Notes under the pieces: generated by a model | Databases searched by the model: none | Told to the model about the DNA's origin: nothing | The model's input: the letters and a program-made list of their open reading frames with translations, nothing else | From: an uncultured Caldithrix sp. | GTDB taxonomy: Bacteria > Calditrichota > Calditrichia > RBG-13-44-9 | Direction: 5' to 3' | Length of the DNA: 64,000 nucleotides | Assembly (NCBI GenBank): GCA_964461135.1 | Contig: CAYWTB010000004.1 | Location: 53,385 to 117,384, forward strand | Shown here: positions 17,078 through 29,689 of the stretch, piece after piece | Layout: each line of letters starts with the position of its first letter | Numbering within the stretch: position 1 is the first letter of the stretch | Position numbers and translations under genes: made by a program

Positions 17078-18250
17078 TTAAATCTTATTTAACACACCGT
17101 CCAGGTCATCGATAAGATCCTGTACATGTTCAACCCCAACTGACAACCTTACCAGTCCCGGCGTAATGTGAGCTTCCTTCAGTGCATCTTTACTCATTCC
17201 GGCGTGGGTCATGGAGGCGGGATGCTGAATAAGCGTGTCACAGTCTCCCAGACTCACCGCCAGAGTACACAACGCCACATGATCCATCAGGTATTTTCCG
17301 GCATCAAAGCCGCCTTTCAATTCAAAAGATATGATTCCTCCCCCGCCGCTTTGCTGCCTCCTGGCCAGTTCGAATTGAGGATGGGATTCCAGAAACGGAT
17401 AATAAACTCTTCCAACGGTCGGATGCTTCTCCAGCCACCGGGCAATAGTCAGCGCATTTTCCTGACTTTTTTCCACCCGCAGTGCCATGGTCTTTAATCC
17501 CCTCAGCAGCAGCCAGGCGTTAAAAGGGGACATTGTCCAGCCATAATGAGTTGAAATTTTAAAGGCGCGTTTAATAAAATCCCGCTCACCGACCACAATA
17601 CCAGCCACCACATCTCCATGTCCGCTGATATATTTGGTGGCAGAGTGCAGAACAATGTCGGCACCAAAATCCCTGGGACGCTGATATAAGGGAGTCAAAA
17701 ATGTGTTATCCACACAGACCAGTGCATTACCGGTATGCGCGATATCTACCACAGCGGCAATATCGATGAGTTTAAGGGTAGGATTGGCCGGGGTTTCAAT
17801 GAGGATAAGGGTGGTATTCTTCCGCATGGCCTCTTCCACTTTCTCAAGGCTGGAAGCATCTACCCGGCTCACCTCTATGCCGATATTTTTGATCTCATCT
17901 TCCAGAAGATAATGAGTTCCGCCGTACACCGTATCATCCACAATAATGTGATCACCGGCTCTGGCGGTGGCAAAGACCACGTTGGCTACGGCCGCCATGC
18001 CTGAGCTGGTGGTCATTCCTGCCTCATAACCTTCCAGAAGTGCCATTTTTTTACCCAGTACATCCGCATTAGGATTCCCGAGGCGGGAATAGATATAACC
18101 CGGTTCCTGGCCTTTGAAACGACGGGCACCCTGTTCGGAATTTTTAAACACAAAGGTGGAGGTCTGGTAAATTGGCATGGACAACGCACCAGTATGCGGA
18201 TCCGACTGCTCTACTCCATGGACAATCTCGGTCTCCATGCGGTATTTCAT
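17078..18250 (-). CDS. PLP-dependent Cys/Met-metabolism enzyme (methionine gamma-lyase or cystathionine gamma-synthase family).
   Basis: 390 aa. N-terminal ETEIVHGV...PIYQTSTFVF and the YSRLGNPN motif are present. SATKYISGHGD contains the PLP-binding lysine. Confidence 0.8.
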   Translation of the reverse strand: MKYRMETEIVHGVEQSDPHTGALSMPIYQTSTFVFKNSEQGARRFKGQEPGYIYSRLGNPNADVLGKKMALLEGYEAGMTTSSGMAAVANVVFATARAGDHIIVDDTVYGGTHYLLEDEIKNIGIEVSRVDASSLEKVEEAMRKNTTLILIETPANPTLKLIDIAAVVDIAHTGNALVCVDNTFLTPLYQRPRDFGADIVLHSATKYISGHGDVVAGIVVGERDFIKRAFKISTHYGWTMSPFNAWLLLRGLKTMALRVEKSQENALTIARWLEKHPTVGRVYYPFLESHPQFELARRQQSGGGGIISFELKGGFDAGKYLMDHVALCTLAVSLGDCDTLIQHPASMTHAGMSKDALKEAHITPGLVRLSVGVEHVQDLIDDLDGVLNKI

Positions 18251-18387: not shown

Positions 18388-18837
18388 TTATTTATTGCCG
18401 GGATTTCCTTTGTGTTTCCGGTAAAGCTTTCTCAACCCGATGGCGGATTCCTTCCCGTCACAGATTCCATCTCCATCCGTATCAATGAATCTGTCCCGGG
18501 GAGGATTTTTCCCTTTGCGATAACCCTTTCCCCCCTGTTCCAGATGGTCATCAATACCATTGCCATTAGCATCGACAAAGCCTTCCAAGGGCTGTTCAGT
18601 TCCAGCCGGCTCTACCCCCTGCTGCTGGCCTTCCGGATTCTGCTGATCTTTCTGAACCTGTTCCCTTTCCTGTGCCTGTTTCTGCTTTTGTTCGCCGGTC
18701 TTTTTTTGTTGTTGCTCGGTCGACTTTGTCTTTACCTGCTCTTTTTTCTTTTCCGTTTTTGTGGAATCCGCATTCTGTCCCACAACACCTGATATTCCAA
18801 TGAACAGGCTCAGAATGATAATATAATAGTTTTTCAT
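18388..18837 (-). CDS. Secreted Q/K/E-rich low-complexity protein with two DxDxDG calcium-binding-like loops (paralog 1 of 3).
   Basis: Signal peptide MKNYYIIILSLFIGISGVVGQ, followed by KTEKKKEQVKTKSTEQQQKKTGEQKQKQAQEREQVQKDQQ. Loops are FVDANGNGIDDHLE and FIDTDGDGICDGKE. A 4-nt gap separates it from the upstream gene. Confidence 0.6.
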   Translation of the reverse strand: MKNYYIIILSLFIGISGVVGQNADSTKTEKKKEQVKTKSTEQQQKKTGEQKQKQAQEREQVQKDQQNPEGQQQGVEPAGTEQPLEGFVDANGNGIDDHLEQGGKGYRKGKNPPRDRFIDTDGDGICDGKESAIGLRKLYRKHKGNPGNK

Positions 18838-18841
18838 GGCT

Positions 18842-19678
18842 TTACTCCTCCGAAGAAATTTTTTCTCCCTTAATGACAGATATTATATCTACCGGAAGAA
18901 TATCATTTTGTTCGGCGATGTCTTTAATAAATTCATCTTTATTATATATTATTTTATGATTATCCAGTCTTTTTAAAGTTACCTGAACAGGGATTCCCAG
19001 TTCCGCCGCCACTTCTTCCACGGTTTTTCTACCATAACCGGTATACAGAGTTTTTTTGGCGTCATTATCGGAAACTCTCTGTATCAATTCGCTGGGAGAC
19101 GTATTATTCATCTCTGCCAGCTCCTCAATTGTGGTCGTGGAATCAACATGCTGAATCCCTTCATGTTTCAGGCTTTGCAAAAGATTCTCCATATTGGTGC
19201 CGGTTTTCTGAGCATATTGAGACAGGGTAAGCAGTTCCGCATGAGGAATGGGTGGTTCGCTTGACGGATTGCTCCAGGAATTGCTCAGATATTCTCCAAA
19301 ATCCATTACAGTCTGAAAGGGGGGAACCTGCAGAATCATTAGAACCAGTATGGTTACAGTCAAGAATGAAGATAAGGCCAGTTCCTGCTTCATTTTAATA
19401 CCCGCCTGGAGTTTCGATTTCAGATAGCTCCAGAAAACTATCCAGTTATAATATAAATGAAATGCACCCACGATGATAAATGCCAGGGCAAAAACAGTAT
19501 GGACAGCCTGCCAGCCGGTTTTGGTTAATCCCATAAACCTCCAGATCACCCAGTTTGCTACCCGTCCTGGAGGTGAGAAATAAAGAACTATACCGGTAAG
19601 AATTAAAATCAGCCAGGCGAAAACCACCATAAAACTGAAAAACGCTTTCCTATTGAATTTAGCCGGACGCATCATCAT
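18842..19678 (-). CDS. Inner-membrane protein with an N-terminal 4-TM DUF4405-like domain (conserved His in helices) and a C-terminal soluble helical domain.
   Basis: N-terminal hydrophobic helices with AVHTVFALAFIIVGAFHLYYNW. The C-terminal ~140 aa is hydrophilic. The family assignment is from memory and was not verified. Confidence 0.5.
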   Translation of the reverse strand: MMMRPAKFNRKAFFSFMVVFAWLILILTGIVLYFSPPGRVANWVIWRFMGLTKTGWQAVHTVFALAFIIVGAFHLYYNWIVFWSYLKSKLQAGIKMKQELALSSFLTVTILVLMILQVPPFQTVMDFGEYLSNSWSNPSSEPPIPHAELLTLSQYAQKTGTNMENLLQSLKHEGIQHVDSTTTIEELAEMNNTSPSELIQRVSDNDAKKTLYTGYGRKTVEEVAAELGIPVQVTLKRLDNHKIIYNKDEFIKDIAEQNDILPVDIISVIKGEKISSEE

Positions 19679-20920: not shown

Positions 20921-20950
20921 CAGCGCTCTTCCTTTATGGGAAGAGCGCTT
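20921..20950 (-). terminator. Intra-operon hairpin or attenuator between paralog 2 and the beta-barrel gene.
   Basis: AGCGCTCTTCC tttat GGGAAGAGCGCT: an 11-bp perfect stem. On the minus-strand RNA it is followed by CAUAUUAUUCG, which is only moderately U-rich. Confidence 0.35.
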
Positions 20951-21562: not shown

Positions 21563-21579
21563 TACAAACCTCGTGCCAG
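21563..21579 (-). promoter_or_regulatory. Candidate sigma-54 (-24/-12) promoter for paralog 2.
   Basis: The minus strand reads cc TGGCACG aggt TTGTA aa (GG at -24; TTGT rather than TTGC at -12). The -12 element lies about 62 nt upstream of the start codon at 21504, adjacent to a sigma-54 activator gene. Confidence 0.45.
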
Positions 21580-22117
21580 GATTAGTAATAATTTTTAAGT
21601 TTATAATAATAATAGACTTGTAAATTTTATTAACCTGACGTCGGAGACTTGTCTTCGCCCGGTTGGTCGTATAAATCGACCTGCCAGTCGATACCCAAGT
21701 GTTCGGGTCAATTTTCTGATAAATTCCGCCTGAAAATAGGATTCTTCGCATTAATACGTGACTGCTAAACTTACCTGATCTCCTGAGAAAACATGTCAGC
21801 GCTGCCTGCTGTCAGGCAGGTACGCGGTGGTTTTGGCATTTCGACTCTTAACGATCCTTTACACCTCCCACCCTAAGTGGTTGGGTTAGTAATGAATTAA
21901 AGAAAACCTTGCTCAATTACTAATCCCGGCAGGGATGAAATGTTTAAAGAAAAGATAGAATCGAAAGACATGAACTCTGCAGGAGTGATATATGAAATCC
22001 TTTCAGAATATTTTGTTTGGGTATTCATTATTATGAAGTACCGAAAATATGAAACTAACAGATAACTATACTTACATGATATAACACTGTTTCGCTATAA
22101 TTCAGTACTGGAATTAC

Positions 22118-23482
22118 CTACTTTAATCCCAGTTTTTCCAGCCGTGAGCGGAGGTGTCTCTCCGTTATTCCCAACAGGCGCGCCGCTGCACTTTGATTTC
22201 CCCGTGTCTGTTCCAGGGCTGAACCAATCATCTCCTTTTCAAAGGCCCGCACTTTGTCTTCATAACCATCCCCATAATTATAGGGATCCAGTACCTTTTT
22301 TTCGGTTGGCGGCTGAGTATGGCCCGGCAGGTCCGTCATGGAAATGATATTGGTGCGACTAAGAACCACTGCCCGTTCCAGAATATTTTCCAGTTCCCGG
22401 ACATTTCCGGGAAAATCATATTTCATCAGACGGTCCAGGGCCTCACCCGATATGCCCTTCATTTCCTTCTGATTTTCGCTGCTGTATTTGTTTATAAAAT
22501 GTTCGGCCAGAACCGGAATATCCGTTTTTCGCTGGCGAAGAGGCGGCACAAAAATAGTGACCACATTCAGACGGTAATACAGATCATCCCTGAATTCACC
22601 CAGGTGCATCTTATCTTCCAGCTGGCGATGGGTGGCGGCAATAATGCGGACGTCCACTTTGATAGGGGCCGAGCTTCCAACCCGTTCTATTTCACCAAAT
22701 TGTATGGCCCGCAACAGTTTTATTTGGATAGGAAGAGGAATATCACCTACTTCATCGATGAAAAGGGTACCGCCATTCGCCTGCTCAAAACGCCCGATCC
22801 GCTGTTGTGAAGCACCGGTGAAAGCCCCTTTTTCGTGCCCGAAAAGTTCCGATTCAATTAAATTCTCCGATAACGCCGCTATATTTACAACCACAAACGG
22901 TTTGTCCTTACGAGGACTGGAGTAATGAATAGCCCTGGCAATCAGCTCTTTTCCGGTACCGCTTTCTCCGCGGATAAGCACCGAAGCTTTACTGTTGGCC
23001 ACCCTGCCGGCAGTATTAAGGACATTCTCCATCTCCCCGCTTTGAGAAATGATAGACTCAAACTTAAATTTCGCTTCCAGTTGCTCGCGGAGTTGCTTGT
23101 TTTCTTCCATCAACAGCCGTTTTTCTTTGACCCTCTCAATCAGGTTTTCCAGTTCATTCAGATCTATTGGTTTGCTGAGATAATCATATGCGCCTGCTTT
23201 CATTAATTCCACTGCATCTTCAATACTCCCGTACGCGGTTATCACTACCACATCGATTTCAGGATTTAATTCCTTTATTTTGCGTAAAACCACCAGTCCG
23301 TTCCAACCCGGCATGCGGTAATCAGTAAGTACCAGATCTATAAAATGTTTCCGGGCTATCTTAAACCCCTCTTCACCATTAACTGCAGTATATACCTGAT
23401 AATCCCGGCGTTCCAGGTAGCTTTTCAGGGCTTTCAGCTGCGTTTCCTCGTCATCGATTAATAGCAAGGTAAAAGGTCTCAT
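22118..23482 (-). CDS. Sigma-54-dependent response regulator (NtrC/ZraR/AtoC family): REC, AAA+ sigma-54 interaction domain and Fis-type HTH.
   Basis: The receiver region is MRPFTLLLIDDEE...DLVLTDYRMPGWNG. GESGTGKELIARAIHYSS is the Walker A, and the GAFTGA motif is present as EKGAFTGA. The C-terminal HTH is QSAAARLLGITERHLRSRLEKLGL. Confidence 0.9.
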   Translation of the reverse strand: MRPFTLLLIDDEETQLKALKSYLERRDYQVYTAVNGEEGFKIARKHFIDLVLTDYRMPGWNGLVVLRKIKELNPEIDVVVITAYGSIEDAVELMKAGAYDYLSKPIDLNELENLIERVKEKRLLMEENKQLREQLEAKFKFESIISQSGEMENVLNTAGRVANSKASVLIRGESGTGKELIARAIHYSSPRKDKPFVVVNIAALSENLIESELFGHEKGAFTGASQQRIGRFEQANGGTLFIDEVGDIPLPIQIKLLRAIQFGEIERVGSSAPIKVDVRIIAATHRQLEDKMHLGEFRDDLYYRLNVVTIFVPPLRQRKTDIPVLAEHFINKYSSENQKEMKGISGEALDRLMKYDFPGNVRELENILERAVVLSRTNIISMTDLPGHTQPPTEKKVLDPYNYGDGYEDKVRAFEKEMIGSALEQTRGNQSAAARLLGITERHLRSRLEKLGLK

Positions 23483-23581: not shown

Positions 23582-25624
23582 TTAATTTCTGATTCCGTTT
23601 AAGATTTTCCCGGGTATTTGTATGGAAAATTGTGTTCCCTGTCCTTCCCTGCTTTCCAGGAAAATAGTGCCATTGTGTTGATCAACAATTTGCTGAACAA
23701 TACTTAACCCGATGCCGGTTCCGCTATCTTTGGTGGTGAAATAAATATTGAATATTTTTTTCTGTATATCTTCCGGGATTCCCGGACCATCATCAGCCAC
23801 ATTCATTTCAATGAAGTCCCTTTTTGTTTTTCTGATGTGGATATCGATGCGTCCACCGGAATTCAAGGCCTCCATGGCATTCTGAATCAGGTTTGTGAAA
23901 ACCTGTTTCATTTTGCGGCGGTCCCATTCCACCGTTTCCGACCACTCCGAATCTATGTGAAGACTGATATTCTTTGTTTCCAGTAATGGCTGATATTGTT
24001 TTTGCAATTCGTCGAAAAAATCCTGCAGCGAAAAAACCTCTGTTTGCAACGGCTCAGGCCGGGCAAATCTCAGGAAATTTTCTATGGTTTGGTTAATCCG
24101 TTTCACTTCATTATAGACCATGCGGGAAAGTTGATGATATTCGTCCTGTTGCCGGCGAGGTTCAAAATCCCTGTCCAGTTGCTGGATGACGGTTCCGATG
24201 GCATTGAGGGGGTTACGTATCTCATGAGCCACACCGGATGCCAGCTGGCCCAGTGCTGTTAACCGTTCCCGTCTCTGAATCTGCCCTTCCAGCCGTTTCT
24301 GATCGGTCAGATCCCGTGCCACCAGAATATATACCAGCTGATTATTCTCATCCGTATAATGACTCTTTGACATTAAAATATGCCTGGTTTTTCCTTTAAT
24401 TGTCATCGGAAACTCCTGCATGCTGAAGCGATCATCCAGGATATGTAGCCAGTTCATGCCAGGGAAAACGCTCCTGATTTCCTTTCCCACCACTTCATCA
24501 GCTTTTAGTTCGAATAATTTTTCGGCGGATTGATTGACGATTCTGATTTTCTCTCCCGATTCGAAGACAATAATCGCATCACTCACGTTTTGGATAATAT
24601 TGCGGGAATAGGTTTCCACAGACTGGTACTGTTTCCGGGTAAAATCGAGATTTTGCCTCATCATTATGAAAGTGAACATGAAAAAACCGATTACCAGCAG
24701 CAGAAGGCTGATGATTGTGATGCGGCGATATATACGGCTGTTGATCACAGTAAGAGGTGCCATTGAAATACCCAGCCTGAATATGCCGACCGGCTCTCCC
24801 TGATAGTTGAAAGAATGAACGGCTTCAAAAACTTCCTGCCCTTTAAAATCAAGGGTACGAACACGTAAAACGGAGTCAGATAAAGCTTTACTGAGAAACG
24901 GTGAAGTATTAATCCGTTCCAGGTCCACTATATTTCCGGAGGCGGCGAGAATGCCGGAGGTATCCTGAATGGCTGCATACAGGATTCCGGGATTCCCGCT
25001 AAGGCTTTGAAGAAGGCTGCCAATCCCCACCTCCTTGCGAAATTCCAGCAGCTGCGCCGCATTCAGGTTAACGACTATGGCACTTTGGGCTTTTCCGGCC
25101 ACCGCCACTGCATAGCGGAAGCCCTTTTCATAGCGTGCCGCCTTTAATCCCAGCAACAAAGTATCCGTCTTTCCGGTGAATATGGGTGTTAAAATGTCTT
25201 CCGGTTCATTCCCGGATTCGGAATAATTGTGTATCTGCTGATGACTGCTGTATATCTTTTTTCCATCGGGTGTAAAAATATTTATCCTGTACAGATTATT
25301 TTCGCGGGCAAACTTCTGCAGGAAGGCATTACTGACCCGACCTTTGTTATAGAGATCTTTTACCATATTGGCATTATTTAAAAGTCTTTCATCAATAAGC
25401 TCTTCAATCAACATATTTGTCATCAGCGTATTGCGGGAGGCACTGATGACTGTTTCCGATAAAGTATGTGCCTGTTCAGTCATGAGTTCAACCAGCTCTT
25501 TCTTGCTCTGGCGTAATTCTATAATAGCCGAACTGATCATCAGGGCTGCCAGTACCAGGAATATGAATAACAAATTTTTAGGACGTATGAACTGTGCCTG
25601 TCTGAAGATTCTTTTCATGATCAT
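23582..25624 (-). CDS. Membrane sensor histidine kinase: two TM helices flanking a ~270-aa periplasmic domain, then PAS, HisKA and HATPase_c.
   Basis: TM1 is LLFIFLVLAALMISSAII and TM2 is ITIISLLLLVIGFFMFTFIMM. The H-box is GVAHEIRNPLNAI, and the ATPase region contains DDGPGIPEDI...GTGIGLSIV. Confidence 0.85.
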   Translation of the reverse strand: MIMKRIFRQAQFIRPKNLLFIFLVLAALMISSAIIELRQSKKELVELMTEQAHTLSETVISASRNTLMTNMLIEELIDERLLNNANMVKDLYNKGRVSNAFLQKFARENNLYRINIFTPDGKKIYSSHQQIHNYSESGNEPEDILTPIFTGKTDTLLLGLKAARYEKGFRYAVAVAGKAQSAIVVNLNAAQLLEFRKEVGIGSLLQSLSGNPGILYAAIQDTSGILAASGNIVDLERINTSPFLSKALSDSVLRVRTLDFKGQEVFEAVHSFNYQGEPVGIFRLGISMAPLTVINSRIYRRITIISLLLLVIGFFMFTFIMMRQNLDFTRKQYQSVETYSRNIIQNVSDAIIVFESGEKIRIVNQSAEKLFELKADEVVGKEIRSVFPGMNWLHILDDRFSMQEFPMTIKGKTRHILMSKSHYTDENNQLVYILVARDLTDQKRLEGQIQRRERLTALGQLASGVAHEIRNPLNAIGTVIQQLDRDFEPRRQQDEYHQLSRMVYNEVKRINQTIENFLRFARPEPLQTEVFSLQDFFDELQKQYQPLLETKNISLHIDSEWSETVEWDRRKMKQVFTNLIQNAMEALNSGGRIDIHIRKTKRDFIEMNVADDGPGIPEDIQKKIFNIYFTTKDSGTGIGLSIVQQIVDQHNGTIFLESREGQGTQFSIQIPGKILNGIRN

Positions 25625-25736
25625 AAATTACATTATCCATTTATGCAGGGCAAGATTTCAATAAAGTCTGAAGTGATTTCATACCTGTATCGAACAGTCG
25701 TCTTAACTTCAATACTAAAATTGAATTATTAAATGG

Positions 25737-25768
25737 TAAAAAGCCTCCGTAACGACAGGAGGCTTTTA
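25737..25768 (-). terminator. Rho-independent terminator after paralog 3.
   Basis: Plus strand reads aaAGCCTCCgtaacgacaGGAGGCTtttacc. On the minus-strand RNA the stem GCCUCC/GGAGGC is followed by UUUUUACCAUUU. Confidence 0.5.
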
Positions 25769-25796
25769 CCTGGAGGCATTTATGTAGATGGGTCAT

Positions 25797-26426
25797 TTAT
25801 TTCCCGCCGGTGGATCCGCCATTGCGATTCTGGGTTTTGGAACCGCCTGAAGGGGTACCACTACCCAGACCATAACCGGTACCATCCTTCGGTCCTACAC
25901 CCTGGTTACCGGTGCCGTCACCGGGTCCGTATCCGCCTTTTCTGGTACCCTGGGTGGAACCCGGACCATAGCCGGTTTCATCCTTGGGACCAACGCCCTG
26001 GTTGCCGGTGCCATCTCCGGGACCATAGTGCCCGGCTGCATTATCATTGCCCTTCAGCGAACGGAGTTGAAAGCGGTCATCTATTCCGTCGCCATTCATA
26101 TCCCGGAACTGGAAACGGTATTCAAAACGATTCTGGAACATGTTCTGACTCATGGAGGCTGCCCCGGACTGGTTTTTTATCCGGATCTGGTTGCTGGTGC
26201 TTGATTGCAGCTTGTTCTGATATTGGGTCTGATTCTGCTGCTGCACTTTCGGCTGGTCCTGTGCCTGATTTTTTGTCTGATTCTGGACCTGGTTGTGAAG
26301 CTGTGCTTTGGTTTGGGTCTTCGCCTGGGTCTTGGTTCTTGTTTTCAGTGAGTCCTGTGCAAATGCCTGCAGACTGAAAGCAAGGGTTAATCCCAGGATC
26401 AGAGTGAATTGAGAGATGCGTTTCAT
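25797..26426 (-). CDS. Secreted Q/N/T/K-rich low-complexity protein with a DxDxDG loop and tandem GYGPGDGTGNQGVGPKD repeats (paralog 3 of 3).
   Basis: The likely true start is MKRISQFTLILGLTLAFSLQAFAQ at 26426, preceded by aaGGAGGaagtatc ATG. The loop is FRDMNGDGIDDRF. The repeat tail is HYGPGDGTGNQGVGPKDETGYGPGS...GGYGPGDGTGNQGVGPKDGTGYGLGSG. Confidence 0.6.
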   Translation of the reverse strand: MKRISQFTLILGLTLAFSLQAFAQDSLKTRTKTQAKTQTKAQLHNQVQNQTKNQAQDQPKVQQQNQTQYQNKLQSSTSNQIRIKNQSGAASMSQNMFQNRFEYRFQFRDMNGDGIDDRFQLRSLKGNDNAAGHYGPGDGTGNQGVGPKDETGYGPGSTQGTRKGGYGPGDGTGNQGVGPKDGTGYGLGSGTPSGGSKTQNRNGGSTGGK

Positions 26427-26475: not shown

Positions 26476-26492
26476 CTCAATTGTCGTGCCAA
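26476..26492 (-). promoter_or_regulatory. Candidate sigma-54 (-24/-12) promoter for paralog 3.
   Basis: The minus strand reads t TGGCACG acaa TTGAG gcaa. The -12 element lies about 52 nt upstream of the start at 26426. It has the same TGGCACG-N4-TTG architecture as the site upstream of paralog 2. Confidence 0.4.
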
Positions 26493-26695
26493 TGGAGAAC
26501 CAGACCTTGCTTATATGATGTTTATATTAGACTTATAACGATGATGTGCAGAGATGAAGGTACTTACTGCTCGACCGGACGGGCGAATTACGCCAACCGG
26601 ATGGGCGGATATTTCGTGGAAGCAGCGTGACGGATAAATTTAAAAATGAGTGCCGGCATCCAGCAACAAAAGATTTCCCTGGCAGAGATGTAATT

Positions 26696-27598
26696 TTAGT
26701 GAGAATCGGGTGGCGAGGTCTTCCAGCGGCGGTGCATCCAGAAATATTGTTGGGGATGTTTACGGATGGCCCTCTCCAGCAGTCTCATCAGGTCAGCCGT
26801 CAGAATTTGCAGATTATCCCTGGAGAAAACCTGCCCCGAGCGATCCTTAACCGGTATCATATCAACGTCGAACTGGTATATGCCTACTCGCGTGGACAAT
26901 CCCAGAAACAGGGGTGCAGCGGTTTTCATGTGAAGAATAGCCGCGCCGGTATGAGTTGATGACGGGCGATTAAAGAATGAAACGAATATCCCACGATCTC
27001 CGGCATCCTGATCTCCCAATAGTGCTATCATTCTGCCGGCCCTTAACGCTTTTTCACAATTCTGAACCGCCCCGCGAGGATAGATAATCTGCAGACCCCA
27101 ATTTTCACGCCATTCTTTCATTCTTTTGTTGACCAGGACATTTTTTTGCCGCTGCTGGATAACTGCCGATCGAATACCCCGGACATAAAAATAATTAACG
27201 GCAACCTCCCAGTTTCCATAATGTCCGGAAACAACAATCGCCCCACGATCGTTTTTAACCGGCCGGACGACATTTTCGATTCTGGCCCGGTATACACGTT
27301 CTTCCAGATGCCGTTTACTCCATTTTTGCATTTTCATGAATTCCAGAATCACCAGGGAAAAATGGAGATAAGAAGAATAGGCGGTTCTCTTCCGCCATTT
27401 TGACGGTTTTTCCGGAAAAGCCAACCCTAAATTATCCAGGGCAACCTTGCGGCGGATTCGTAAAACATGGAATGCCAAAAAAGCAAACAGACGGGCTGCA
27501 GCAGGCAATGTGCTGTCCGGAAGAGAACCCACCAGTTTTTCTACCAGATGAAATCCCTGGAATTCCGCCCGATGCTGAAAAGAAATGCTGCTGGCCAT
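26696..27598 (-). CDS. Lysophospholipid acyltransferase, LpxL/HtrB-like (lipid A biosynthesis late acyltransferase family).
   Basis: 300 aa. The C-terminal KHPQQYFWMHRRWK signature is typical of LpxL/HtrB family members. Confidence 0.75.
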   Translation of the reverse strand: MASSISFQHRAEFQGFHLVEKLVGSLPDSTLPAAARLFAFLAFHVLRIRRKVALDNLGLAFPEKPSKWRKRTAYSSYLHFSLVILEFMKMQKWSKRHLEERVYRARIENVVRPVKNDRGAIVVSGHYGNWEVAVNYFYVRGIRSAVIQQRQKNVLVNKRMKEWRENWGLQIIYPRGAVQNCEKALRAGRMIALLGDQDAGDRGIFVSFFNRPSSTHTGAAILHMKTAAPLFLGLSTRVGIYQFDVDMIPVKDRSGQVFSRDNLQILTADLMRLLERAIRKHPQQYFWMHRRWKTSPPDSH

Positions 27599-27600
27599 TG

Positions 27601-29106
27601 CTATCCCTTAATTACGCCCAGAGGCTTCAGGCGTGCCACTTTACAGCTGATGCCGGCTTTATGCATAACCTCCACTACATCTGCCACATCTTTATAAGCC
27701 TGTGGCATTTCTCCCGCAATGGTTTTCATACCTTTTGCCCGTATTATAACGCCACGCCTTTTAAGTTCCTGGACAAGATTTCGTCCCTTTCCGGCTTTTA
27801 AAGCCTGGGTACGACTCTGGACGCGTCCCGCTCCATGACAGGTGCTGCCAAAGGTATCCTTCATGGCCTGATTGGTCCCCACAGCCACGAACGAATATCG
27901 TCCCATGTCTCCCGGCACCAGCACCGGTTGACCCACTTCCCGGTATTTTTGAGGTATTTCTGAATTCTGCGGGGGAAATGCGCGGGTGGCTCCCTTGCGG
28001 TGCACACACACTTTTTTTCTACTGCCATCTATATCATGCTCTTCAATCTTGGCCACATTATGGCAGACATCATAGACCAGCCGGAAACCGAAGTCATCAG
28101 AGGACATATTAAACATTTTTAACATGGTTCTACGGGTGATCGCCATAATAATCTGCCGGTTGTTCCAGGCAAAATTGGCCGCCGCCGCCATGGCACCCAG
28201 GTAATCCCTGCCTTCCGGTGACTGAACAGGCGCACAGGCCAGTTGCCTGTCGGGAAGCATTATCCCGTATCTGGGAATGGCTTTTACCAGGATCTTCAGA
28301 TAATCATCGCAAACCTGGTACCCCAGGCCACGTGATCCGGTATGAATAGAAATGGTAAGCTGCCCCGGGAATAATCCAAAAATTCCGGCAATTTCCTCAT
28401 CATACACTTCATCCACCATCTGCACCTCCAGGAAATGATTCCCTGAACCGAGTGTACCGGCCTGATCCTGTCCCCGCTCAATGGCACGGGAGCTGACTGC
28501 CTCCGGATCAGCCTGTTTCAAACAGCCGTTTTCTTCAGTAAACAGCAGATCCTCTTCCTCCCCGAAATCATTTTCCACAGCCCAGCCCGCTCCCTTCAGA
28601 AGAATTTGTTTAATCTCCCCGGGAGATAATTTCCGGATGGCTCCGGATGATCCAACGCCGGTGGGGATATTATGGAAAAGGGTTTCGACCAGCTTTTGCA
28701 TTTGGGGTTCCACCTGCCGGGCATGCAGATTTGTACGGATCAGCCTGACGCCGCAATTAATATCATATCCCACACCTCCGGGTGAGACCACTCCATTCTG
28801 TACATCGGTGGCAGCCACACCGCCGATCGGGAAACCATATCCCCAGTGTATGTCGGGCATGGCAAGGCTGTATTTCTGAATTCCGGGAAGATGAGCCACA
28901 TTAACTACCTGTTTAATGCTTTCATCATTTTGCAGGTATTTCTCTATCATTTTGCGGGAACTGTAAATGCGGCCGGGAACCCTCATTCCTCCCTGTGCCG
29001 GAATTTCCCATAAATAGTCATGGATGGGATGCAATTCATAACCGCTCACATGCATTATCGTTTCCCCTGTATATTTGAACAACTTCCCTTTGCTGTTAAT
29101 TGACAA
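27601..29106 (-). CDS. rtcB: RNA-splicing ligase RtcB (3'-phosphate/5'-OH RNA ligase).
   Basis: Full-length with RtcB hallmark segments, including ...HTGSRGLGYQV and GSTCHGAGR (metal and GTP ligands). Confidence 0.9.
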   Translation of the reverse strand: MSINSKGKLFKYTGETIMHVSGYELHPIHDYLWEIPAQGGMRVPGRIYSSRKMIEKYLQNDESIKQVVNVAHLPGIQKYSLAMPDIHWGYGFPIGGVAATDVQNGVVSPGGVGYDINCGVRLIRTNLHARQVEPQMQKLVETLFHNIPTGVGSSGAIRKLSPGEIKQILLKGAGWAVENDFGEEEDLLFTEENGCLKQADPEAVSSRAIERGQDQAGTLGSGNHFLEVQMVDEVYDEEIAGIFGLFPGQLTISIHTGSRGLGYQVCDDYLKILVKAIPRYGIMLPDRQLACAPVQSPEGRDYLGAMAAAANFAWNNRQIIMAITRRTMLKMFNMSSDDFGFRLVYDVCHNVAKIEEHDIDGSRKKVCVHRKGATRAFPPQNSEIPQKYREVGQPVLVPGDMGRYSFVAVGTNQAMKDTFGSTCHGAGRVQSRTQALKAGKGRNLVQELKRRGVIIRAKGMKTIAGEMPQAYKDVADVVEVMHKAGISCKVARLKPLGVIKG

Positions 29107-29257: not shown

Positions 29258-29689
29258 CTATATGTCAAAAACCAACAGGGTCCGGTATACGCCGTTTTCT
29301 TTTTCAATATTCAACTGATGGAAAGTTACCGCTTTTATTTCAATTTCGATCGAATGTCTCTGTGGGTCCAGTAGTTCACCTGCAATCTCTGCATTAAGTT
29401 TCCAAATCTCTTCTGATTTTTCCACCTTCAGATATTCAAATGTGTAAAATACCCATCTTTTTACCGTTAGCAAATAATTCAGTTCATCGATACAGTTCAC
29501 CAGAAGTTCTTCCAGGGATGATGTCTCAAAAGTGAGCTGTTTTTTTTCAACGGGAGCACCTTGCGAATTTTCCAACACCACCTCCCGCCAGGCTGCCGCC
29601 GCAGTCCGGATCAGATCTTCATAATTGTCCCCCTCCAGTCGTACGGCGACATCCGCGGTATGGTCAATCTGTTTATATGTTCCCATCAC
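29258..29689 (-). CDS. Archease (RtcB activator).
   Basis: 143 aa. The N-terminal YKQIDHTADVAVRLEGDNYEDL matches the archease family and it lies adjacent to rtcB. Confidence 0.85.
   Translation of the reverse strand: MMGTYKQIDHTADVAVRLEGDNYEDLIRTAAAAWREVVLENSQGAPVEKKQLTFETSSLEELLVNCIDELNYLLTVKRWVFYTFEYLKVEKSEEIWKLNAEIAGELLDPQRHSIEIEIKAVTFHQLNIEKENGVYRTLLVFDI

Follow-up and report, generated by a model that had tools for sequence, protein, structure and literature searches.

Small exported proteins with acidic loops and a glycine-rich module appear to be the sigma-54-dependent output of an adjoining two-component system in Calditrichota and other phyla

We analysed a stretch of 64,000 nucleotides from an uncultured Caldithrix sp. 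(contig CAYWTB010000004.1, positions 53,385 to 117,384 of the forward strand), hereafter called the window, and concentrated on three of its genes, which encode the small proteins P1, P2 and P3. Judged from sequence and gene context, the genes of the family to which these proteins belong appear to be the conserved sigma-54-dependent output of an adjoining two-component system, with which they form a cassette in several phyla. P1, P2 and P3 are genuine paralogs, predicted to be exported by a Sec-type route and to be largely disordered, and the family, as delimited by profile searches, is large and without a name.

Three paralogous exported proteins

P1 (18388..18837, 149 aa), P2 (20968..21504, 178 aa) and P3 (25797..26426, 209 aa) had been put forward as paralogs in a preliminary description of the window, and all three open reading frames (ORFs) are indeed present at these positions on the minus strand, each preceded by a Shine-Dalgarno sequence. 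For P3, the ORF list extends to a TTG codon at 26492; the ATG at 26426 is the better start, because a predicted promoter overlies the TTG. Each protein begins with a signal peptide, which is followed by a low-complexity linker and by one or several acidic loops of the pattern D-x-[DN]-x-[DN]-G-[IF]-x-[DN]. P1, the product of the last gene of its operon, has a K/Q/E-rich linker and two such loops, which resemble the thrombospondin type-3 (TSP3) repeat (DANGNGIDDHLE and DTDGDGICDGKE). P2, the family prototype, carries three TSP3-like loops (DKNGDGFNDN, DHDKDGIPNGQD and DTDGDGIADN) after its linker, then one GYGPGDGTGN...CDGTGPKG module and a basic tail. P3 combines a long Q/N/K/T linker with a single TSP3-like loop (DMNGDGIDD) and two glycine-rich units.

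In composition-adjusted BLASTP comparisons, P1 matched P2 with E=3e-10, P2 matched P3 with E=1e-7 and P1 matched P3 with E=1e-4. By this measure the kinship of the three proteins exceeds what composition explains, and together with the shared motifs it bears out the earlier picture of paralogs built from a signal peptide, a low-complexity linker and calcium-type loops. A six-frame scan of the whole 64 kb for GP.DG[TS]G and for the acidic loop found these motifs in the genes of P1, P2 and P3 only. The glycine-rich unit is present in two full copies of 32 residues each in P3 and in one copy in P2, and is missing from P1; the figure of 2.5 copies given earlier for P3 was slightly generous. At the DNA level, a repeat search returned the P3 unit as 2 x 69 nt with 81% identity and a spacing of 96 nt, and Tandem Repeats Finder detected no array in P3. 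P3 contains no Cys, and P2 and most of its relatives end the module with C-D-G-T-G-P-K-G and a basic tail.

The mature chains of P1-P3 have a grand average of hydropathy of -1.4 to -1.8 and contain 11-12% hydrophobic residues, 13-19% Gly and 11-15% Gln. An AlphaFold2 model of P2, calculated from an alignment of 93 sequences, reached a mean predicted local distance difference test (pLDDT) score of 59, and its only secondary structure element was the helix of the signal peptide. The pLDDT values peaked over the loop region (67-81) and fell below 50 over the glycine module. The hydropathy and the model both agree with the disordered look reported for these proteins. The P2 model had no usable fold. 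The Q/N/K/T-rich linker is the least conserved part of the chain and is almost missing in many relatives, which makes a role as functional core unlikely.

The wider family

The size of the family was estimated from a protein search with P2, from a profile search of 1.84 billion cluster representatives and from the GTDB species-representative genomes. With P2 as the query, 373 proteins were retrieved, every one of them labelled 'hypothetical'; their genomes belong to Calditrichota, KSB1 and Ignavibacteria or are Rhodothermia-like. The profile search gave 2,013 cluster representatives at a cut-off of E<=1e-3 and 538 when this was tightened to E<=1e-10; most of the 150 matches listed are 100-280 aa long. 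In the GTDB genomes, 341 stretches match the family.

The family consensus starts with a signal peptide that has an A-Q-D end and with a variable Q/K/T linker. Two loops then follow in H-G-x-x-F-V-D-x-N-G-D-G-[YF]-N-D-N-A-P-D-H-D-G-D-G-I-P-N-G-x-D-P-D-Y, a third in G-F-V-D-x-D-G-D-G-I-N-D-N, and the module reads G-G-Y-G-P-G-D-G-T-G-N-x-G-V-x-P-x-D-G-T-G-Y-G-x-G...C-D-G-T-G-P-K-G before a basic tail. The most conserved alignment columns are those of the second loop and of the C-terminal C-D-G-T-G-P-K-G. Within the glycine module, a sub-motif [G/R]-P-x-D-G-T-G recurs in the aligned sequences at an irregular spacing of ~11-15 residues. A search with P3 added short forms of 115-135 aa, in which a single F-V-D-x-N-G-D-G-I-C-D-N loop is combined with the module, and loop-less forms with 2-4 copies of the module. 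P1-type proteins constitute a conserved subfamily with the consensus K-L-E-G-F-V-D-x-N-G-N-G-I-D-D-R-L-E...K-D-R-F-I-D-x-D-G-D-G-I-C-D-G-R-E-S-A-I-G-L-R-K-L-Y-R-K-R-R-G, and their genes occupy the operon-terminal position in related genomes too.

A signal-peptide-like N-terminus was found in 323 of the 338 members that start with Met, and in 294 of the 338 the hydrophobic core is followed by [AGS]-Q. The latter feature resembles the Bacteroidetes Q-rule, which has been stated not to extend to the whole Fibrobacteres-Chlorobi-Bacteroidetes (FCB) group (PMC5837995). A search for fusions among the longest relatives found only cadherin/immunoglobulin-type surface proteins that share the acidic loops. 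One P2 homolog (P0117), a single case among the 120 homologs listed, carries the precomputed Pfam label PF27309.1.

Kinase, regulator and the conserved cassette

The order of genes on the minus strand is P3, a sensor histidine kinase, a response regulator, a gap of 612 bp, P2, a 402-aa predicted beta-barrel, a DUF4405 protein and P1. The kinase (23582..25624, minus strand, 680 aa) consists of a periplasmic domain of ~260 aa followed by PAS, HisKA and HATPase domains, and the sigma-54 response regulator (22118..23482, minus strand, 454 aa) of a receiver domain, an AAA+ sigma-54 activator domain and a Fis-type helix-turn-helix (HTH), the named domains being Pfam assignments. The cytoplasmic part of the kinase scores best against AtoS/ZraS and the regulator against AtoC, NtrC and ZraR, the NCBIfam matches of the regulator to these three being all under the equivalog cut-offs. 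Across phyla, the sensor domain of the kinase is conserved, but none of its His or Cys residues is invariant; a sequence search of the PDB found no relative of it.

The genomic context was examined in 80 of the 341 GTDB stretches and in nine further contexts obtained by exact protein look-up. The 80 loci come mostly from Calditrichota, KSB1 and Ignavibacteria/Melioribacteraceae, and the remoter relatives from elsewhere. In nearly all of the loci the family gene adjoins orthologs of the kinase (35-60% identity over the full length) and of the regulator (51-76%, and 53-76% for those in other phyla). Its other neighbours are usually a barrel homolog, often a DUF4405 gene and sometimes a P1-type gene. 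The barrel homolog follows the family gene immediately in most loci, and none is adjacent in several (L018, L027, L036 and L079). Among distant members, two short forms are placed in the full cassette; the short form P0230 and two loop-less forms, one of which is from Thermoanaerobaculia, are encoded immediately downstream of a kinase of shorter length and a sigma-54 regulator. A gene for the periplasmic ferritin-like protein DUF2202 adjoins the family gene in ~20 of ~90 loci, and these DUF2202 proteins carry signal peptides or lipoboxes. Neighbours seen in individual loci are multihaem cytochromes, VIT1 (in Rhodocaloribacter) and a resistance-nodulation-division (RND) efflux pump. One locus (L006, 7638-9714) has an extracytoplasmic function (ECF) sigma factor, a zf-HC2 anti-sigma factor and a Metal_resist/LTXXQ protein of the CpxP/ZraP type between the regulator and the family gene, so that two envelope-stress modules stand side by side there.

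Promoters, operator and hairpins

A predicted sigma-54-type -24/-12 promoter, TGGCACGAGGTTTGTA, is located on the minus strand at 21563..21578, ~60 nt upstream of the P2 ATG, and another, TGGCACGACAATTGAG, at 26476..26491, ~50 nt upstream of the P3 ATG. In both, the -24 half is a perfect TGGCACG, and the -12 half is TTGT or TTGA. The putative upstream activator sites of P2 (21655..21691) comprise an exact palindrome, TCGACCTGCCAGTCGA, at 21676-21691, ~100 bp upstream of the promoter, and a degenerate copy at 21655-21670, 21 bp apart from it. P3 has a single putative activator site, TCGACCGGACGGGCGA (26571..26586), which shows one mismatch to the palindrome and lies ~95 bp upstream of the P3 promoter. 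In the 64 kb, these are the sole exact and the sole one-mismatch copies of TCGAC-N6-GTCGA.

The same signals were surveyed in 78 related loci with sufficient upstream sequence. A site of the form TGGCA[CT]-N5-TT[GT] is present in 56 of them, against a background of 0.011 per 300 nt, and usually begins 59-94 nt away from the start codon. In 60 of them the palindrome was found with no more than one mismatch, against a background of 0.02 per 300 nt, and often in tandem 21-22 bp apart. The palindrome and the promoter keep fixed distances across the 78 loci. In four distant loci, a sigma-54-like promoter was found upstream of the family gene in every case; among the distant loci, L089 retains the full palindrome and L090 has degenerate copies. 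The simplest interpretation of this co-conservation is that the palindrome is bound by the adjacent regulator, which would thereby drive transcription by sigma-54.

Strong hairpins form the third element. A stem-loop with an 11 bp stem (20922..20949, minus strand; -26.7 kcal/mol, z = -4.5) separates P2 from the barrel gene and is likely a partial terminator or an mRNA-stabilising hairpin. P3 is followed directly by an intrinsic terminator (25735..25770, minus strand), a GC-rich stem with a U-tract in a region of z = -2.8, and hence appears to be a single-gene transcription unit. Both paralog-headed transcription units of the window therefore carry palindrome, promoter and hairpin signals. Across the 80 loci, a strong hairpin stands right after the family gene in 81%, and the mean best folding energy at this place is -17.9 kcal/mol versus -9.4 kcal/mol in random windows. 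Rfam found nothing in the window.

Two alternatives can be weighed at this point. The first is that the ORFs are chance products of low complexity or were mis-called. Their composition and the long overlapping ORFs on the opposite strand would speak for it, but it is refuted by hundreds of homologs that conserve the motifs, by synteny, and by ribosome-binding sites, promoters and terminators, and can practically be discounted. The second is that the secreted protein is a feedback ligand only, which would bind the periplasmic domain of the kinase as an autoinducer or a CpxP-like inhibitor and would have no buffering or structural role. As expected for such a ligand, the small protein is closely linked to kinase and regulator in all lineages, those with the short kinase among them, and its gene would be under the control of the same system. 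However, its own promoter and terminator hairpin imply a very high copy number, for which a ligand would have no use, a locus can have up to three paralogs, and the numbers of loops and modules vary widely among relatives, which is unusual for a specific ligand. We consider this alternative very unlikely.

The acidic loops and the glycine module

Pfam and NCBIfam searches with P1-P3, with 23 family members and with isolated glycine modules returned only sub-threshold or compositional matches. The Pfam TSP3 repeat (PF18884) came closest, with a best score of 21 bits on P1, which misses the gathering threshold of 25 bits. TSP3_bac was also the most frequent weak Pfam match, found below threshold in 13 of the 23 members, and the family profile aligned weakly (E=0.015) to the TSP3 repeats of the OmpA structure 5wtl in the PDB. 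A pattern scan located the 12-residue loop D-x-D-x-D-G-x-x-D-x-x-D in DHDKDGIPNGQD, DTDGDGIADNMN, DANGNGIDDHLE and DTDGDGICDGKE, and the acidic loops are among the best-conserved columns of the family alignments.

The family and the bacterial TSP3 proteins (PF18884; the OmpA family of Bacteroidota, 5wtl) have the loop D-x-D-x-D-G-I-P-[DN]-x-x-D in common, and in both it occurs in tandem in an exported, envelope-located protein. Unlike the TSP3 loops, however, those of the family stand behind a conserved F-[VI]-D, and the C-P that often trails TSP3 loops is missing from them. Furthermore, the family chain has no OmpA or barrel domain, whereas the TSP3 proteins have no glycine-rich module. The motif and the sub-threshold scores suggest that the loops resemble TSP3-type calcium sites, calcium binding itself being putative. 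The chelation of divalent cations or the part in phase separation that the preliminary description suggested for the Gly/Asp/Asn-rich repeats is likewise putative.

An EF-hand, a helix-loop-helix with a hydrophobic residue at loop position 8 and Glu at position 12, is a poorer description of the loops: nothing behind the signal peptide is helical in the P2 model, the loops have their hydrophobic residue at position 7, and EF-hand_5 was matched in only 2 of the 23 members, at E=3.3. The composition of the family is also reminiscent of the RTX beta-roll (GGxGxDxUx), in which short Gly/Asp-rich repeats of exported proteins fold upon calcium binding. Here, however, no Pfam match to RTX/HemolysinCabind (PF00353) was obtained, the P2 model has no beta-roll, the register and length of the repeat differ, and genes for type-1 secretion are absent.

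The glycine module alone has no relative in the PDB or Pfam. The DUF5320 proteins (PF17253) of anaerobes are small and cytoplasmic, are not known to have a signal peptide and bear a G-D-G-T-G-P...G-x-G motif near the N-terminus; their spacing, G-D-G-T-G-x-x-G-x-x-P-x-x-G-x-G-x-G and then a Cys, looks similar. The hidden Markov model (HMM) does not support the resemblance: that of PF17253 misses whole members and isolated modules even at E=10. A literature search found nothing on the function of DUF5320. Asr of Enterobacteria is a small, basic, disordered periplasmic protein that is induced by a two-component system. The match of P3 to Asr (NF033636) scored 18.9 bits against an NCBIfam cut-off of 50 bits and was limited to the linker, and Asr has neither the acidic loops nor the glycine module. 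All matches in Pfam, NCBIfam and the PDB being sub-threshold, the inability of the preliminary description to place the proteins in a named family is confirmed.

Proposed mechanism

The closest parallel in gene layout is the ZraP/ZraSR system, in which the gene of a small protein of the periplasm adjoins those of a histidine kinase and a sigma-54 regulator and has a sigma-54 promoter. ZraP is reportedly the periplasmic accessory protein of this system (Appia-Ayme 2012 and Petit-Hartlein 2015, as listed in PMC6737893). Like the CpxP/Spy/ZraP-like proteins, the family is encoded beside its own two-component system, by which it would also be controlled. It shares no kinship in sequence or structure with ZraP, however, and the LTXXQ motif, the helices and the His-rich zinc site are all missing from it. 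The kinase differs from ZraS in its much larger sensor domain, and in comparison with ZraPSR the operon has an outer-membrane barrel and a b-type cytochrome in addition. CpxP/Spy/ZraP membership (LTXXQ, PF07813/PF13801) was rejected, as there was no Pfam match and no predicted helix.

We propose the following chain of events. The kinase would sense an envelope signal through its conserved periplasmic domain, and the phosphorylated regulator would bind TCGAC-N6-GTCGA and activate sigma-54 transcription of P3 alone and of the operon that runs from P2 through the barrel and the DUF4405 cytochrome to P1. The hairpins would let P2 and P3 far outnumber the downstream products. The mature proteins would build up in the periplasm or at the outer membrane, where their acidic TSP3-like loops may bind Ca2+ or other divalent or trivalent cations. 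In this way P1-P3 could act as an inducible buffer, protector or adaptor, the role that ZraP has for ZraSR, here taken by an unrelated protein. The inducing stress would most likely be metal- or redox-related, with iron as the leading candidate because of the recurrent periplasmic ferritin-like DUF2202, the FezC-like b-type cytochrome and the multihaem cytochromes. For the chain as a whole, from the signal through the kinase and the regulator to abundant inducible cation-binding envelope proteins as the main output of a ZraPSR-like system, we estimate a probability of about 0.45, somewhat short of an even chance.

Several observations weigh against it. The TSP3-like motifs on which cation binding is based stay under the Pfam threshold (21 vs 25 bits), and the glycine-rich module, with its pLDDT below 50, has no known chemistry. 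The lack of an invariant His or Cys in the kinase sensor disfavours a classical metal-sensing site, and the signal may therefore not be a simple metal ion. The -12 element is TTGT or TTGA in place of the canonical TTGC. Co-conservation is the single line of evidence for the binding of the regulator to the palindrome. Lastly, the window contains no DUF2202 gene, and the link to iron is drawn from a minority of loci.

The outer-membrane barrel and the export alternative

The gene directly behind P2 (19687..20895, minus strand) encodes a protein of 402 aa that belongs to no Pfam family. Its AlphaFold2 model (pLDDT 79.5, predicted template modelling score 0.75) is all-beta, and a Foldseek search with it retrieved the OmpG, OprD/Occ and AlgE porins with E ~1e-8 and probability 1.0, at TM scores of 0.35-0.5. 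The matches are those of a generic porin, and the fold search singled out no specific transporter family or subfamily. On this basis the protein is, with good confidence, predicted to be a closed antiparallel outer-membrane beta-barrel with a signal peptide. Residues 195-230 form a disordered Gly-rich loop, GGGGPGNDHGPGSGYY, the composition of which recalls the glycine module of the small proteins; it is therefore a possible interaction site.

The barrel gives rise to an alternative in which the family proteins are exported to the surface: the disordered, Gly/Gln/Asn-rich chains would be threaded through the co-transcribed barrel to form a calcium-crosslinked coat, adhesive or matrix outside the cell. 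The hairpin between the family and barrel genes, found in 81% of the loci, would then provide an excess of subunit over channel similar to that of the major subunits of fimbriae and curli. In agreement with this, the barrel gene is directly behind the family gene in most loci, the barrel is of a predicted 14-18-strand class that includes the polymer exporters AlgE and PgaA, and the presumed cargo is unfolded in the P2 model. An Ignavibacteria locus also has a multihaem cytochrome followed by a ~386-aa protein with no Pfam match. On the other hand, the fold match is generic and porin-like with TM scores of only 0.35-0.5, no known secretion pathway handles unfolded proteins in such a manner without periplasmic helpers, the family genes of L018, L027, L036 and L079 have no adjacent barrel, and P3 is transcribed alone. 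We consider export of this kind unlikely.

DUF4405, DUF2202 and a possible link to iron

The DUF4405 membrane protein (18842..19678, minus strand, 278 aa; 57 bits in Pfam) has ~3 transmembrane helices. In its alignment H60 is invariant and H73 is present in 8 of 9 sequences, and a PPIPHAE motif with I or V at the third position is conserved after the third transmembrane helix. The C-terminal domain of ~150 aa consists of HTH-like (IF2_N-type) repeats and is predicted by the positive-inside rule to be periplasmic, which is an unusual place for such repeats. Binding of haem b has been demonstrated for other DUF4405 proteins and for the ferrosome protein FezC (PMC11334425), and ferrosome gene clusters repeatedly include DUF4405 as well as DUF2202 (bioRxiv 10.1101/2020.01.10.902569).

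In a Thermoanaerobaculia metagenome-assembled genome (L091, 5778-6632), DUF2202 ends in ...A-A-C-D-G-T-G-P-G-D-G...V-C-D-G-S-G, a fusion to the terminal motif of the family; it is the single DUF2202 with a CDGTG tail among the ~20 DUF2202 neighbours. This gene has a sigma-54-like promoter of its own, TGGCACGCTCCCTGC, at 5711. A multihaem c-type cytochrome and a ~386-aa protein with no Pfam match are found together in two Ignavibacteria loci (L090, 5198-6553; L003, 11476-14035). The pair in L090 forms a divergent operon, for which there is a second sigma-54-like promoter, TGGCACGCTCTTTGA (6655). A CpxP/ZraP-type Metal_resist gene or an RND efflux pump adjoins some loci and is a further pointer to iron or redox.

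These neighbours suggest another function, which overlaps the proposed cation-binding mechanism: the DGTG module and its conserved Cys, together with DUF2202 and the FezC-like b-type cytochrome, would handle iron or another redox-active metal in the envelope, by binding, oxidation, reduction or sequestration. Support comes from the DUF2202 adjacency and the one DUF2202-CDGTGP fusion, from the conserved His of the DUF4405 cytochrome in the operon, from the multihaem cytochrome operons under a divergent sigma-54 promoter, from VIT1 beside the Rhodocaloribacter locus and from the origin of many of the genomes, which are subsurface, vent or sulfidic going by their record titles. However, the classical iron ligands of the module are limited to Asp, Tyr and one Cys, the Cys of C-D-G-T-G is missing from P1 and P3, the fusion is a single one among ~20 neighbours, and about three quarters of the loci have no DUF2202 and many no DUF4405. 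A function in iron or redox chemistry is thus quite unlikely. A still more specific version would make the DGTG proteins, the barrel, DUF2202 and the FezC-like cytochrome a sigma-54-controlled extracytoplasmic system of iron handling, in which the DGTG proteins are the cargo or partner of the barrel and iron is oxidised or reduced and sequestered on a disordered calcium- or iron-binding scaffold. Calditrichota, Ignavibacteria, KSB1 and their relatives would thus have an equivalent of ferrosomes in the envelope. Taken jointly, these claims are improbable.

Novelty and significance

Two aspects of the system are of known kinds: the acidic loops are of the TSP3 type, and the regulatory logic is that of a two-component system whose accessory or effector protein is periplasmic. 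The [G/R]-P-x-D-G-T-G module and the family as a whole were not found in Pfam, NCBIfam, the PDB or the literature searched, and neither were the operator and the cassette that includes a barrel and a b-type cytochrome. The literature searched, which included a 2025 survey of sigma-54 regulons, held nothing on this family or its two-component system.

The family amounts to about two thousand clusters of unannotated small exported proteins from several poorly studied phyla. It can now be tied to a conserved sensor-regulator pair, to the TCGAC-N6-GTCGA operator and to a sigma-54 promoter, which makes a testable regulon out of an anonymous ORF. If its members turn out to buffer cations inducibly or to act as adaptors, the task of ZraP, CpxP and Spy would have a second, unrelated solution. 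Should the link to iron or redox hold, the family would point to a so far unrecognised system of the envelope, with components that are otherwise familiar from ferrosome gene clusters. In addition, the [G/R]-P-x-D-G-T-G module is a candidate for a new metal-binding or elastomer-like motif. We regard all this as a solid, well-delimited and testable lead rather than a demonstrated new mechanism, the function having been deduced from sequence.

Other features of the window

An ORF of at least 2,463 codons (1-7389, minus strand) leaves the window at its left edge and has no Pfam match at E<=1e-5. One of two further sigma-54-like sites on the minus strand, TGGCACGGGAATTTCA (4151-4166), lies inside this giant ORF and the other, TGGCACGTGATTTGTC, at 62710-62725; there is no TCGAC-N6-GTCGA palindrome near either of them. 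Directly downstream of the P2 operon is a pyridoxal phosphate (PLP) enzyme of Cys/Met metabolism, similar to methionine gamma-lyase (17078-18250, minus strand). This enzyme is also downstream in a related Calditrichota contig (L001, 12635-13807) and is not at that position in those loci of other phyla whose gene tables were read. On the other side of P3, an LpxL-type lipid A acyltransferase is encoded at 26696-27598, and an RtcB RNA ligase and an archease form a pair on the minus strand (27601-29106 and 29258-29689).

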